From Escherichia coli (GTDB lineage: Bacteria; Pseudomonadota; Gammaproteobacteria; Enterobacterales; Enterobacteriaceae): DNA of 64,000 nucleotides. Where the stretch lies: assembly GCF_044324875.1 (NCBI RefSeq), contig NZ_CP172186.1; one strand, written 5' to 3'. Below, piece by piece: positions 6,001-18,000 of this stretch (positions are counted from its first letter, which is position 1; the number at the start of each line of letters is the position of its first letter). A program made the position numbers.

Positions 6001-9000
6001 CCATATTCAACGGCTTCTTTAAGGAGTTCATTTTCCATCGTTTTTTTGCCGAGCAGGCGCTGGAGTTCTTTAATCTGCTTCATGGCAGCAGCAAGTTCAG
6101 AGGCAGGAACGACCTGTTCTCCGGCGGCCACAGCAGTAAGACTTCCCTCCTGGTATTGCTTGCGCCAGAGAAATAGCTGGCTGGCTGCCACACCGTGTTG
6201 CCGGGCTACAAGGGAGACCGTCATTCCCGGTTCAAAACTCTGCTGAACAATAGCGATCTTTTCCTGTGTAGTACGCCGTCTGCGTTTCTCCGGTCCTAAG
6301 ACATCAATCATCTGCTCTCCAATGACTAGTCTAAAAACTAGTATTAAGACTATCACTTATTTAAGTGATATTGGTTGTCTGGAGATTCAGGGGGCCAGTC
6401 TAGCAGATTATGGTGCGCAGTTATACAATAGCAGTAATGAGGAGTCTACTATTTCTCTTGTTATGCCAGATGCAATTGAATGGAACGGAAAGAATACGCC
6501 AAGACGGCAATACATGATAAAATATATTGCCGTATTTAAATATTAAAATTTATTTTTGTAGATCATCTGAATTTTCGGTGACCTTCAAGTTTTATATCGT
6601 TCATTTTATCCAGAGACTCACGTAATGATTCTATATTCCCGTCCTCAACTTTCTTTTTTGCAATATTGATTTCATGTTGTAGTTTTTTTAACTCTTCCTT
6701 ATAATTATCTACAGAAACTTTATCATTAACATCTATCTTTTCAGGAATAATATTCATAGAAGAATCTACAGATTTATCCATCATTTCAAGAGCATTTAAT
6801 AGTGATGATTTATCATTGGAAGATTGTAGAATACTCATACTTTTGGCAAGAGACTGCATGTTTTTATCCAGGCCGGAAGCCAAAGATACGTTGCTGAGAG
6901 ATAAAAAAATAGCTAGTACAGCACCTGAGAAAAATACCTTTTGTTTTATCATTAATATATTCCTGTTCAAAGTTGATTATAGTTATGTCAATTTAAGTTT
7001 ATTATTATGATTTTTTATTTTTGTACTATGAATCTCCTGTATGCTTATATGTGCAGAAAATCTCATTTTATCAAGAAGAATATCAAATTTTCTCCGATAC
7101 TTCTACATACTCCATCATTCATGCTCCTTTTATCCGTGCACCGTAAAACCCCGTCCTTCAGCGGGGATATAAGGCGCTGTTTTCCACCTAACCAGGTGTC
7201 TGCTGCTATTCAATGTATTGGCGGATGACGGATGCCGCCCGTTGAAGCAGGAACCCTCGTCCTTAGGGCGTGGAGGATGTCAAAATGAAAACTTGTGGTA
7301 TGAATCAATCCATTCATCATCCTTTCGGATCATTGCATTCAGTATAACGCTGGAAGAGCCTGGCAATATCACTGTATTGATGGTATTACGCCATGAATTG
7401 CTTATTTCTTAAATACGACATGCACCACAGACAGGCTTTTCCTATACCATCGGAACGAGCGGCAAGAAATAACTTGGTGGCGTGTTTATGTTCGCGCATT
7501 GGCTTTTTAAGCAATTTACCTCTGTTCAATAACGGCAATGCCAGATGATGTGGAATATAACCAATACCGACGTTTTGTTCTATTAAGCTGATTGCCATGG
7601 CGAAGTCAGGAACAAAAATAGGTTTTTGTCCTTCCAACAACCAGGCTTGCATTGGGGGGAAGTTAACGGAGGTATCCCGGATACAAACCGCAGGATAATG
7701 ACGCAATTCACTGTTTTCTAATGGATTCCGCTTCACTGCCAGTGGATGAAGTGGGCTGACGACAAAATCCCATTCTATTTGTCCGACCGGTTCGCTAATG
7801 ATGCCTTCACTGCTTGGTACTGCATGAGGAGCACCGTAGACCAGATCAGCACGTTTACTGTACAGCGCATCCCAGCAGCCGTTGTATACTTCAATATCTA
7901 CCGTCAGTGTTGTTGATGTGAATTGCCGTTCAAAATCTTGAATAAATGACACCAGAAAATCACCAGGTATAATATTGTTCACCGCAATTGTCAGTTCACG
8001 CTCAATACCATCGTGAATCAGCACTGTGTTGCGCTTTAATGCATCCAGATCGCGGAGAATATTTTTGCTATGTTCGATGAAGTAACTCCCCGCCGGAGAT
8101 AATTCAATATATCGTCCCTTACGAATGAACAGTTCAACGCCCAGGGTTTCTTCCGCTTTCTTCAGGGTGTAACTGATAGTAGAAGGGACTTTATTTAACT
8201 GTTCGGCTGCGGTGGTGATGTTCTGGTGTCTGGCGACCAGATGAATAATTCGAATCGTTTCGTCTGAGATGAACATAAGGCTCCCTGGTCAGTGGTAAAG
8301 TGGCTGAATCTCTCCAGATTCAGCCGTAATCATTGCCTGAGTATACCCAGGAATTAGCGGTGTTGACTTGCCCGACTGAGAATCGCATACGCGATACATG
8401 CCACCAGAATGGAGTCAACTGAAGGGATCGTCGTCAGGGTGAATAAGCCTTTTACGGTCATAAAGCCAACCGCTGTGCCTGTGATCCATGCAGCGAATGT
8501 CAGTACTTTAACCTGTGACTCCTGAGTTAACACCGACTCTTGATAGCCATTACGGCGATAAAGGAAAAAGTCAGCGATATAAATTCCGGCAACTGGGGGA
8601 GTCGCGATACCCAGGAACAGCAGAAACGGAATAAACCACGCCATAATATCCATACTGCCTACGATGGCGGAAAGGATACCCAGCGCAACGGTAATCTGCC
8701 ATTTGGGAAAGCGGCTAAGCAGTGTGGAAACTACCAACGTCCCCTGGAACATATTGCCCGCATTACCGGTGACGCAGGCGAATATCAGCAACAGTGCTGC
8801 AGGCATAACCGCACCGAATACTGCCATAGCATTCAGTAAAGAGCCCTGGCCGCTAATGGCACTCGGCGTTGCACCCGCCCAGTATAGCAGAGGGTAGGCA
8901 ACCAGAAACGTCATACCTGCGGCAATCAGAGCATGTTTTCGGTTATGTACAAAACTACCGAAGTCGGGAAGTGTAGCAACCAGCACAATAATAGTGCCAA

Positions 9001-15000: not shown

Positions 15001-18000
15001 ATAGGAGCCAACGCAATCTTCCGGTATGATGCATTCATAGCCACGGTCATTTGCTTCACGCACGGTGGTGGTTACGCAAACTTCGGTAGTCACGCCACAA
15101 ACAATAAGTGTCTTGATACCACGCTTTTGCAAAATCAGATGTAAGTCGGTTTGATAAAAAGCGCCTTTACCGGGTTTATCAATCACAGGTTCGCCTGTCA
15201 CCGGATACAGTTCAGGAATGATGTCATGACCTGCCTCACCCCTGACCAGAATGCGTCCCATCGGTCCTGGTTCACCAATAAAGGTTTTTCCGCCGCGCGT
15301 CAGTTTGGCTGATGGGCAGTCGCTTAAGTCTTCACGATGGCCTTCACGGGTATGAATAACCATAATTCCTTTTTGACGTGCGGCTGCCAGAACTTCTTTA
15401 CATGGTGCGATAGCCGTGCGAACCAGTGAAACATCATTACCCAATGCTTCTCCAAACCCTCCTGCTTCGACAAAATCACGTTGCATGTCTATCATGATCA
15501 GTGCCGTTGTGCACGGATCAAAGGGTAATTCAAAGGGTTGAGCCTGAAAAATGGATATCGTCATGACAAATCTCCAGTATATATTGTTTACTGGTGACGA
15601 GTATTCAATATAAAGGTGACCCACAACAGAAAAAAAAGTTGTTTTACAGGAGCGAATATTTTTGAGGTGTCTAAATGTTGTTATGAAAAATGTGATTTAT
15701 ATCAATCTATGACATTCATAAACAACTTTTTTCAAATGTTTATTTGTTTAATATTAAAAAAATTGTCGATATATTGTGATATTAATCATCCTATTTGGCA
15801 GGGATAGTGCTGATTTTTAACAAATACCCCTTACCCCCGTCCTTCAACGGGGATATAAAGCGCTGTTTTCCACCTAACCAGGTGTCTGCTGCTATTCAAT
15901 GTATTGGCGGATGACGGATGCCGCCCGTTGAAGCAGGAACCCACGTCCTTAGGGCGTGGAGGATGTCAAATACCCGCCCTCATTGAGAGAGAAGCTACGA
16001 GATTTTCGCTAAGGGACACAGGTCATACGGGAGATGGCGGTTCCCAGCGTTTATCCTGCTCCGGCGGAGGCAGTGATGCGTCATCGTTGCTGTTCGCCGC
16101 GATATAATCGCGGTAGTAGCGTTCACTTCCTTCCCGGTGATGATCCACATCCGGTCGTGTAATCCTGTAGTCTTCGTGACCGGTACGGCCTGTCACATTA
16201 TGCCAGGCAACCATTTCAGCAAAGACCTGGTTAAATTGTTTGTCGTTTCCTTCTGGTTCAAAGCCCATTCTGGGATCACGCTCAAACAATACAGGTGCAA
16301 TCAAATCCAGTTTATCTGCCAGCGCATTGCGGTCATGGTGATTACGGAAAACAACCCTGTCACCATAATCCGTACAGACAAACTCTCCCGTCCGACGGTC
16401 ACGGAAACGAACACTCCCGTTCTTCTGCAAACGGGCCTCGAGATCACCGGTATTACTGAACCGCCCCGGGTTTCCTGGAGAGTGTTTTATCTGTGAACTC
16501 AGGCTGCCAGATCATCGTTTCCGATGGAAGCATAATAAGCTTTTTCTGCTTCTGCCGGTGGGATATGGCCCAGCCTTTCCAGCAATCGTCGATTGTTATA
16601 CCAGTCCACCCACGTGAGTGTGGCCAGCTCCACTTCTGTCCGGTTTTTCCAGCTCTTACGGTGTATTACCTCCGCTTTGTAAAGGCCATTGATGCTCTCC
16701 GCCATCGCGTTGTCATACGAGTCACCAGTACTTCCTGTTGATGCCAGTAATCCGGCTTCCTTAAGCCGCTGTGTGTAGGCCAGCGATACATACTGAGAAC
16801 CTTTATCACTGTGATGGACTGTGCCGGACGGTCGACGGGCCCATAACGCCTGCTCCAGAGCATCCAGCACGAATGTCGTTTCCATAGACGATGAGACCCG
16901 CCACCCCACGATGTATCCGGCAAACACATCAATGATGAACGCCACATAGACGACCCCCTGCCATGTGCTGACGTAAGTAAAATCAGCCACCCACAACTGG
17001 TCAGGACGTTCTGCCACAAACTGACGGTTTACGCGGTCGCCTGCGGCAACGGCTTTCCGGCTGACGGTAGTGCGGACCTTTTTACCCCGGAGAACACCGG
17101 CAAGTCCCATAACCGCCATGAGGCGCGCCACTGTACATCTGGCTACCCTGATTCCTTCCCGTAACAACTGACGCCAGACTTTACGCACACCGTATACCTG
17201 ATGATTCCCATCGTATACGCGCAGTATCTCTTTCTTCAGCCAGTCATCGCGCTGCGCACGGGCACTGCGTTTATCAGGATGATGTCGCTGTTGCTGACAG
17301 TGGTAATACGTTGACGGGGCAATATGTAGTTCACTGCATACCGGTCCGACCCCGTACAGCTTACGCAGCTTATCCAGCAGTGGCATCACTTTTTCCAGAG
17401 GCGGTCGAACTCCGCCTTCGCAAAATAAGCGGAAGCCTGGCGAAGGATATCGTTACTGCGGCGCAGTTCACGATTTTCACGTTCCAGCTCTTTCAGACGC
17501 TGACGTTCAGCGGTGGTGAGCCCGCCATCACCGCCTCCGGTATCCCGCTCATGCTGGCGTACCCAGACACGCAGAGTCTCCGGTGTACAGCCAATCTTTG
17601 GGGCAATGGAACAAATTGCCGCCCACTGTGAGTCATATTCGCCCTGACTTTCCAGAACCATACGAATCGCCCTCTGACGGACTTCGGGGGAAAAACGAGT
17701 ATTTTTAGTCATTCTGTTTACCTCTTTCTCAGGGAGTTTAGTCTCCAGGATTCCCGGGGCGGTTCAGGTCACCGATGCCGTGATGGAGCAGGTTGTAGAA
17801 TGGCAAAACAGACCACTGGATGCTGTTTACCCCATTGTTTATCTTGACTGTATCGTCCTGAAAGTTCGGCAGGACAGTCGCGTCATCAACAAATCGGTGT
17901 TCCTGGCACTGGGCATCAATATCGAAGGTCAGAAAGAACTGCTGGGTATGTGGCTGGCCGAAAATGAAGGGGCGAAGTTCTGGCTCAATGTGCTGACTGA

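Follow-up and report, generated by a model that had tools for sequence, protein, structure and literature searches.

A plasmid-borne eight-gene cassette of Escherichia coli that joins a triuret hydrolase-type enzyme to oxamate carbamoyltransferase-like subunits and may serve energy-conserving polyureide catabolism

What compound does a set of eight tightly packed genes, carried on a plasmid of Escherichia coli and bracketed by direct repeats, enable its host to use? The set, here called the cassette, occupies positions 7386 to 15564 of a 64,000-nucleotide (nt) stretch of contig NZ_CP172186.1; this whole stretch is referred to as the window. It encodes a cysteine hydrolase, three proteins related to the AllH, AllF, and AllG subunits of oxamate carbamoyltransferase (the trio), a carbamate kinase, a stand-alone AH_C protein, a permease, and a regulator. 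Judged from the encoded proteins and their conserved neighborhoods, its function is most likely a new, energy-conserving variant of polyureide (triuret-type) catabolism. The specific reading proposed, to which a probability of roughly one-half is given, is that the cassette forms a self-contained operon, controlled by its LysR protein, for the catabolism of a linear urea oligomer, with triuret (carbonyldiurea) as the best candidate substrate. The gene coordinates, which follow the PGAP annotation of pCh101, a plasmid with 100% identity in this region, and the flanking features are as follows, with protein lengths in amino acids (aa) and IS denoting insertion sequence:

14896 to 15564, minus strand: cysteine hydrolase, isochorismatase-like, with a TrtA-type active site; 222 aa, first gene
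14030 to 14890, minus strand: AllH-like subunit (DUF2877); 286 aa, PF11392
12376 to 13935, minus strand: FdrA/AllF-like subunit; 519 aa, NCBIfam FdrA
10955 to 12379, minus strand: AllG-like subunit (DUF1116); 474 aa, PF06545
10006 to 10962, minus strand: carbamate kinase; 318 aa, TIGR00746
9600 to 9989, minus strand: stand-alone AH_C protein (c4763 family); 129 aa, PF21986
8354 to 9577, minus strand: NCS1-family permease, CodB-like; 407 aa
7386 to 8276, minus strand: LysR-type regulator; 296 aa, last gene, co-directional
15565 to 15834, minus strand: upstream intergenic region, AT-rich, presumed promoter/operator, directly 5' of the hydrolase gene
7149 to 7284: direct repeat copy 1, 136 nt; left flank, cytochrome b562 side
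15835 to 15970: direct repeat copy 2, 136 nt, relic of an IS200/IS605-family end; right flank

All eight genes lie co-directionally on the minus strand with intact reading frames. In order of transcription they are spaced by 5, 94, -4, -8, 16, 22, and 77 nt, the FdrA-like and AllG-like genes overlapping by 4 nt and the AllG-like and carbamate kinase genes by 8 nt. These measurements agree with an initial annotation, made from the sequence alone, which had described eight co-directional, tightly packed genes with ATGA and 8-bp overlaps. Its domain calls of DUF2877/AllH, DUF1116/AllG, FdrA, carbamate kinase, NCS1, and LysR were supported by Pfam and NCBIfam searches.

The hydrolase was compared with solved structures. 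Its best relatives were those of TrtA, the triuret hydrolase of Herbaspirillum (6XIX and 6XJ4/6XJE, 265 to 269 bits), followed by those of the biuret hydrolase BiuH (6AZO and related entries at 238 to 243 bits, and 6XJM at 233 bits), with solved RutB far below both at 109 bits. Identity amounted to 58% with Herbaspirillum TrtA and 54% with Rhizobium BiuH. The consensus sequences of TrtA and BiuH are distinguished at six positions, where TrtA has F35, N41, A134, E160, Y187, and I205 and BiuH has Y, Y, S, D, T, and V, respectively (PMC7948467). The TrtA residue is present at six of six of these positions in the plasmid copy, the chromosomal copy of sequence type 131 (ST131), and eight distant orthologs belonging to other orders, and none of the six BiuH signature residues was found in the hydrolase. 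The triad D24-K129-C162, the cis-peptide T158, and the binding residues E72, K132, and Q202 are kept in the same set of sequences. The cassette hydrolases thus appear as a clade of their own with a TrtA-type pocket. The initial label of an isochorismatase-like hydrolase holds at the level of the family and can be refined to TrtA-type by the best solved match and the full specificity signature; likewise the substrate, initially described as unknown, is narrowed by the complete triuret hydrolase signature.

Biuret might instead be the physiological substrate, with the hydrolase producing allophanate and the trio cleaving it with phosphate to carbamoyl phosphate and carbamate. Such a route would be simpler and free of an unstable intermediate; BiuH is the best NCBIfam family match of the hydrolase (E 1e-83), many of its orthologs are annotated as biuret amidohydrolase by the Joint Genome Institute (JGI), and generalist BiuH enzymes exist (PMC7948467). 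The match to the BiuH model nevertheless reached only 279.8 bits against a curated cut-off of 370, the six discriminating residues are without exception TrtA-type, and Herbaspirillum TrtA is 10^4-fold less active on biuret. Moreover, two related loci (L078 and L086) encode two such hydrolases, of which the second is 73 to 79% identical to Rhizobium BiuH and has the BiuH signature, while the cassette-type hydrolase retains the TrtA signature beside this true BiuH. Because a separate true BiuH co-occurs in these loci, the cassette-type enzyme would occupy the TrtA role. Biuret as the physiological substrate was therefore considered improbable.

The three genes that follow and the carbamate kinase gene were assigned to the families of a characterized phosphorolytic system. 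The AllH-like protein matched PF11392 (E 3e-26) and has an invariant GxGxGLTPxGDD motif, and the AllG-like protein matched PF06545 (E 9e-99). Curated cut-offs were exceeded by the FdrA-like protein (NCBIfam FdrA, 491.6 bits against 433) and by the carbamate kinase (TIGR00746, 363.1 bits against 358.25; PRK12352, 374.6 against 266). Compared with the K-12 proteins, identity was 40% to AllF and 41.5% to YahF for the FdrA-like protein, 48% to AllG and 46.5% to YahG for the AllG-like protein, 31% to AllH (a partial alignment over 111 aa) and 25% to YahE for the AllH-like protein, and 39% to AllK and 49% to YahI for the carbamate kinase. AllFGHK and YahEFGI are about as distant from each other as either is from the cassette set, and the cassette trio and its kinase can be regarded on these identities as a third E. 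coli paralog set. The paralogy to fdrA-ylbE-ylbF-ybcF (allFGHK) and to yahEFG-yahI that had been noted initially was thus borne out, at 25 to 49% identity and not at the near-identity, with the same neighbors, expected of plain allantoin genes. The possibility that these are simply allFGHK genes was ruled out by the identity of 31 to 48%, the different order and neighbors, and the presence of allFGHK at a separate locus in K-12.

The purified oxamate carbamoyltransferase of E. coli is a complex of three subunits, the products of allFGH (PMC11326118), and its conversion of oxalurate and phosphate to carbamoyl phosphate and oxamate was shown biochemically (PMC11326118; PMC9843812); AllK then uses carbamoyl phosphate to form ATP. 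The cassette has the same three families followed by a carbamate kinase, and the same chemistry would be expected, namely, phosphorolysis of an N-carbamoyl bond to carbamoyl phosphate and from there to ATP. It differs from the allFGHK system in its identity of 31 to 48%, in its order (H-F-G-K, not F-G-H-K), in its position outside the all regulon with different neighbors, and in the association of the trio with a TrtA-type hydrolase, an AH_C protein, and a permease. Oxalurate is probably not the substrate of the cassette trio. The K-12 yahE-yahF-yahG-yahI locus is more similar in layout, with the same order of DUF2877, FdrA-like, DUF1116, and carbamate kinase genes at 25 to 49% identity, a LysR regulator nearby, and an N-terminal extension of YahG that is shared with the cassette DUF1116 protein. 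However, the yah locus has the amidohydrolase-family gene yahJ, an ankyrin protein, and a small membrane protein and lacks the TrtA-type hydrolase, the AH_C protein, and the NCS1 permease; it is a different pathway.

Two further observations were made on the trio. At the N terminus of the DUF1116 protein (window positions ~12245 to 12379, minus strand), residues 6 to 45 align with positions 508 to 547 of the 555-position FdrA model, in its C-terminal tail, and residues 12 to 53 of YahG align in the same way to AllF residues 513 to 554. A short segment has evidently moved between the DUF1116 and FdrA subunits in different paralog sets, which suggests that it sits at the subunit interface. In addition, evolutionary rates within the operon differ sharply: the hydrolase of E. 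coli shares 80 to 87% identity with its counterparts in Burkholderiales, Vibrionales, or Serratia, and the adjacent AllH-like protein shares only 27 to 45% in the same loci (L010 to L061, compared with window positions 14030 to 15564).

Whether the trio acts on the product of the hydrolase was addressed through gene neighborhoods. Relatives of the hydrolase at 78 to 86% identity were found in Enterobacter, Edwardsiella, Vibrio, Photobacterium, Shewanella, Avibacterium, Silvimonas, Dyella, Caballeronia, Paraburkholderia, and Psychrobacter, and in Caballeronia, Vibrio sinensis, and Dyella silvae the same seven neighbor genes occur in the same order. A scan limited to one genome per species yielded 80 loci with a hydrolase 67 to 95% identical to that of the cassette, which were classified with tblastn and with hidden Markov models built from the loci themselves, over a gene span of at most 10 kb. 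These loci come from Enterobacterales, Vibrionales, Burkholderiales, Neisseriales, Xanthomonadales, and Mycobacteria, as well as Chloroflexi, marine Alphaproteobacteria, and one metagenome-assembled Desulfotomaculum. FdrA-like and AllG-like genes were both present within 10 kb in 69/80 loci, and one of them was present in 2 more. All seven genes were found in 41/80 loci, nearly always in the order of the window, L056 being rearranged. Solo AH_C accompanied the FdrA-like and/or AllG-like genes in 60 of 71 loci; among the others, 3 marine Alphaproteobacteria have a full-length allophanate hydrolase and 8 have neither. Nine loci had no FdrA-like or AllG-like genes. Two of these are very short contigs; among the remaining seven, several encode a full-length allophanate hydrolase, a second hydrolase of the BiuH type, and/or an ABC transporter of the urea type, whose UrtA and UrtB exceed their cut-offs. 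Downstream of the same hydrolase there are thus either the enzymes of the classical hydrolytic route or the trio with the kinase and the AH_C protein. This either/or pattern is the main argument for the reading proposed here: the trio would therefore process the product of the hydrolase.

The same loci bear on the possibility that the trio has kept oxalurate, or a close analog, as its substrate, either because the hydrolase makes oxalurate from a compound such as oxaluramide or because two pathways, one for biuret or triuret and one for oxalurate, travel together. The sole biochemically characterized member of the family uses oxalurate (PMC11326118), and AllS, the allantoin regulator, is the second-best family match of the LysR protein. 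In comammox bacteria and ammonia-oxidizing archaea, biuH or trtA lies next to allFGHK and codB, a co-location that was read as separate biuret and oxalurate pathways (PMC12625717, 2025). Set against this are the identity of only 31 to 48% to AllF, AllG, and AllH, the presence of AllFGHK at a separate locus in K-12, and the near-universal linkage of the trio to one hydrolase clade across several phyla (69/80 loci, usually directly adjacent). The cassette has no oxalurate-producing enzyme, and where the trio is missing, the locus encodes allophanate hydrolase or BiuH and no enzymes of oxalurate metabolism. Retention of oxalurate as the substrate was accordingly judged unlikely.

Among the 80 loci, those missing the AllH-like gene from an otherwise complete cassette (L071 to L074, L080, and L085 from Mycobacteria, and L018, L045, L046, L052, L053, L064, L013, and L023) have the hydrolase gene abutting the FdrA-like gene. 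Locus L023, from the poultry-associated pasteurellacean Avibacterium gallinarum, has two FdrA-like/DUF1116 sets side by side (2699 to 8759 and 8865 to 14009), one following the TrtA-type hydrolase and the other with a LysR regulator of its own and a 525-aa transporter.

The small gene downstream of the carbamate kinase had been called GGCT-like. A weak GGACT match was indeed obtained (E 1e-3), but the protein is specifically an allophanate hydrolase C-terminal domain (PF21986, E 5e-42) with a solved structure. It matches positions 472 to 595 of the 600-position NCBIfam allophanate hydrolase model, as well as the C-terminal domains of 4ISS, 4GYR, and 5I8I, and it aligns with PDB entry 5C5Z across all 129 residues (E 1.7e-78, ~94% identical). 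As cited in PMC7558591, 5C5Z is c4763 of uropathogenic E. coli (UPEC) CFT073 (Kim et al. 2015, Acta Cryst F71:1042), described as an allophanate hydrolase C-terminal domain homolog and studied as an isolated "UPEC-specific" protein; PMC7558591 makes no mention of the operon context. At ~94% identity, c4763 is the chromosomal ortholog of the cassette AH_C protein. A literature search on the CFT073 locus tags around c4763 returned nothing useful. The cassette contains no gene for the amidase-signature catalytic domain, the AH_C protein covering the C-terminal part alone. When solo AH_C proteins were compared with the C-terminal domains of full-length allophanate hydrolases, the only invariant residues were Gly, Pro, Met, and Ile of structural character, with no shared catalytic residues.

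The following pathway is proposed from these assignments. The NCS1 permease would import the polyureide, and the TrtA-type hydrolase, as its sequence and active-site signature suggest, would remove one terminal amide of triuret to give ammonia and 1-carboxybiuret. The latter reaction is that of TrtA, whose product carboxybiuret has a half-life of ~20 min, long enough for it to serve as an enzyme substrate. Carboxybiuret and allophanate are plausible substrates of the trio because, like oxalurate, they are N-carbamoyl compounds with a terminal carboxylate. With phosphate, the trio may cleave the N-carbamoyl bond of carboxybiuret to release carbamoyl phosphate, possibly followed by the same reaction on allophanate; this step is based on family chemistry and on the complementarity of gene neighborhoods. 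Carbamate kinase, whose reaction is an established function of its family, would transfer the phosphate to ADP, yielding ATP and carbamate, which would decay to ammonia and CO2. The AH_C protein probably acts on an unstable N-carboxy intermediate, which it may decarboxylate or stabilize, and its step is the least certain. The net result would be the release of all nitrogen as ammonia, together with ATP, from polyureides without urease, BiuH, or the allophanate hydrolase amidase domain. Typical E. coli has neither urease nor allophanate hydrolase.

In this proposal the trio would replace the TrtB decarboxylase, biuret hydrolase, and allophanate hydrolase of classical triuret pathways. The hydrolytic pathway of Herbaspirillum and Rhizobium (TrtA/TrtB/BiuH/AtzF) begins with an enzyme of the same type and with an identical catalytic and specificity signature, and in some genomes the same hydrolase clade adjoins BiuH and allophanate hydrolase. 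The cassette, in contrast, lacks BiuH, TrtB, and the allophanate hydrolase amidase domain and has instead the trio, carbamate kinase, and solo AH_C, so that its route would conserve energy and bypass allophanate hydrolase. Comammox contigs with allFGHK-like genes next to trtA/biuH also lack trtB (PMC12625717). The trio is put forward, tentatively, as a previously unrecognized "polyureide phosphorylase" that might convert carboxybiuret and allophanate to carbamoyl phosphate and, with the hydrolase and carbamate kinase, form an ATP-yielding route for triuret or biuret. The general logic of the initial annotation, in which an importer and an amidase lead to carbamoyl transfer to phosphate and then to ATP via carbamate kinase, was judged reasonable and is supported by the gene content.

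A number of points weigh against the triuret operon as proposed. The AH_C protein is given no necessary role in it. The only substrate reported for AH_C, by Fan et al. in 2013, is N-carboxycarbamate, and it is not made by the proposed route. An alternative cleavage to N-carboxycarbamoyl phosphate and urea would supply this reported substrate and would leave urea unused; likewise, a trio acting on biuret would leave urea, which is useless to urease-negative E. coli. No member of the AllFGH family is known to act on carboxybiuret, allophanate, or biuret. With only 58% identity to TrtA and a separate clade, the cassette hydrolases could favor a related acyl-urea. Fourteen loci lack the AllH-like gene and 8 lack AH_C, which blurs the set of required subunits. 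No convincing sigma-70 consensus was found upstream of the operon on the minus strand, and the literature search found no experimental work on the cassette.

Regarding control and uptake, the LysR regulator is kept with the cassette in most related loci, and its best NCBIfam matches were PunR (276 bits) and AllS (205 bits), both below cut-off. The upstream region at 15565 to 15834 is 67% identical to its chromosomal counterpart, compared with 91 to 97% for the coding DNA, and a promoter and terminator scan returned fewer sites than shuffled controls. The permease matched the NCBIfam cytosine permease model at 148.6 bits against a cut-off of 326, together with an NCS1 subfamily model, and is not a CodB equivalog; its orthologs in the Caballeronia, Vibrio sinensis, and Dyella silvae loci carry the Pfam domain Transp_cyt_pur.

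A permease of this NCS1/CodB-like type, together with the weaker RutB match of the hydrolase, would also fit catabolism of a pyrimidine or another N-heterocycle by means of a cytosine-type permease and a RutB-like amidohydrolase. Pyrimidine-derived nitrogen was in fact suggested for the chromosomal copy, known as the "uncharacterized" region GR 29 (PMC12928451, 2026). The score against the RutB equivalog TIGR03614 was, however, 116.9 bits against a cut-off of 377.95, far below the TrtA and BiuH matches, and Rut partner genes such as RutA were found neither in the cassette nor in related loci. Among the eight cassette genes and the annotated recurrent accessory genes of related loci, no match was obtained to the ring-opening families searched (RutA, dihydropyrimidinase, hydantoinase, barbiturase, and cyanuric acid hydrolase). 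The accessory genes of variant loci encode urea-type ABC transporters, allophanate hydrolase, and BiuH, and many loci replace the NCS1 permease by an unrelated UraA-fold transporter. An N-heterocycle was consequently regarded as a quite improbable substrate, and the import and opening of such a ring, as envisaged initially, was set aside, since no ring-opening enzyme is present and the hydrolase falls in the linear-polyureide amidase group (TrtA/BiuH).

The replacing transporter is a membrane protein of ~525 aa encoded beside the TrtA-type hydrolase in 19/80 loci, mostly directly downstream and usually in place of the NCS1 permease. Examples are found in L075 (10728 to 12272), L076 (8100 to 9695 and 9779 to 11365), L058 (10741 to 12297), and L078 (10723 to 12306). 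It gave no Pfam, NCBIfam, or PDB sequence match. Its AlphaFold model (predicted local distance difference test [pLDDT] score of 83) has the UraA/SLC26/AzgA 7+7 transporter fold (Foldseek E 3.5e-8), and it is a candidate for a polyureide transporter family lacking an existing profile.

Triuret hydrolase was described in 2020 and oxamate carbamoyltransferase in 2024, and the cassette joins the two systems in one conserved unit across several bacterial phyla. A link between triuret and carbamate kinase was not found in the literature search beyond the co-location in PMC12625717. Should the proposed pathway be true, it would add an energy-conserving branch to the degradation of urea oligomers and purine waste and give a function to a gene set that has been labeled "UPEC-specific" or "uncharacterized" and occurs in ~28% of complete E. 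coli genomes. It would also imply that the allFGHK-like genes beside biuH/trtA in nitrifiers serve polyureide and not oxalurate catabolism. Birds excrete uric acid, and triuret is one product of uric acid oxidation. The pathway would thereby make sense of a second copy on plasmids of poultry E. coli, and it would tie bacterial fitness to the oxidized uric acid of urine and bird excreta.

The plasmid location reported initially was confirmed by 86 PLSDB plasmids that match the region, 81 of them at ≥99% identity over ≥80% of it. Escherichia accounts for 82 of the 86 and Klebsiella for 4; all are predicted to be conjugative, and chickens, ducks, pigs, and humans are the source of many. The cassette is not, however, primarily a plasmid feature. 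It was present in 1,569 of 5,426 complete E. coli genomes, with 1,522 chromosomal places at ~94.6% identity, so that ~28% of complete genomes carry it on the chromosome, and it has the same order in many bacterial groups. Its main home is thus the chromosome. The chromosomal homology spans only window positions 7392 to 15578, the repeats being excluded. B-lineage and ST131 strains of E. coli carry the cassette, and K-12 does not. In ST131 it lies between a metE-side sugar module and ysgA-udp, whereas in K-12 metE and ysgA are adjacent. The sugar module (hxlB-ptsG-tkt-rpiR; L002, 3750 to 8780) shares the metE-ysgA gap with the cassette on the ST131 chromosome, and K-12 has neither; this gap appears to be a variable hotspot.

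When the plasmid and chromosomal copies were compared, the ratio of nonsynonymous to synonymous substitution (dN/dS) was 0.07 to 0.26 in all eight genes, which are thus under purifying selection and have been kept functional. These values bear on the alternative that the copy on the plasmid is only inert cargo, acquired amid IS debris and now decaying without a function. The surroundings are indeed a mosaic in which gene fragments mix with truncated copies of IS3, IS1, and IS66 elements, and the upstream region differs from the chromosomal one. Yet the eight reading frames are intact, every gene has a low dN/dS, and the cassette is conserved at ≥99% in 81 plasmids from poultry, pigs, and humans, which makes inert cargo a very improbable explanation. 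Synonymous divergence from the ST131 chromosomal copy (L002) was uneven: it reached ~0.31 in the hydrolase and AH_C genes and ~0.09 to 0.11 in those encoding the AllH-like and FdrA-like proteins, a pattern that points to past recombination within the cassette. In a search for a donor of the plasmid allele, the upstream region was found at ≥99% identity on plasmids only, and Citrobacter hydrolases were ~90% identical at the protein level.

The 136-bp direct repeats described initially as bracketing the operon were confirmed at 7149 to 7284 and 15835 to 15970. They are 98% identical, copy 2 differing from copy 1 at 3 positions, are spaced by 8,686 nt, and occur in only two copies in the window; a chance origin is ruled out by their length and identity. 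Over its first 85 nt, copy 1 matches the tnpA-proximal end of an IS200/IS605-family element in L008 at 92% identity, and both repeats are relics of one such IS200/IS605-type end in direct orientation. No transposase gene is present in the flanking repeats, and an Rfam scan of positions 6400 to 16600 gave only chance-level matches, the repeat not being a known RNA. Plasmid pE16-3 represents an empty site, with cytochrome b562, a single 136-nt copy, and a NikB-like gene, and matches both window junctions at ≥99%. As an exact single-repeat empty site, it shows gain or loss by homologous recombination, and the unit exchanged is therefore the cassette plus one repeat (8,686 bp) and not a transposon. 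A composite transposon, a retron, and an integron cassette were each rejected, the repeats lacking a transposase and matching a single IS200/IS605-type end. Fragmentary IS3-family remnants lie on both sides, outside the repeats. The initial view of a mobile module between IS elements is thus retained with respect to gain and loss by recombination and to the flanking IS3 remnants, and not with respect to transposition. The plasmid cassette is a second-hand copy between two IS200/IS605-end relics.

Two minor features adjoin the repeats. A cytochrome b562 gene (6563 to 6952, minus strand) lies just outside repeat copy 1 in a low-GC stretch (6001 to 7500, 35 to 38% GC) and also flanks the empty site of pE16-3. 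On the other side, a NikB-like relaxase fragment (16023 to 16457, minus strand) is cut off by an IS3-family element at 16499 to 17711, and the corresponding NikB-like gene of ~512 aa is intact in pE16-3 (L009, 6189 to 7724).

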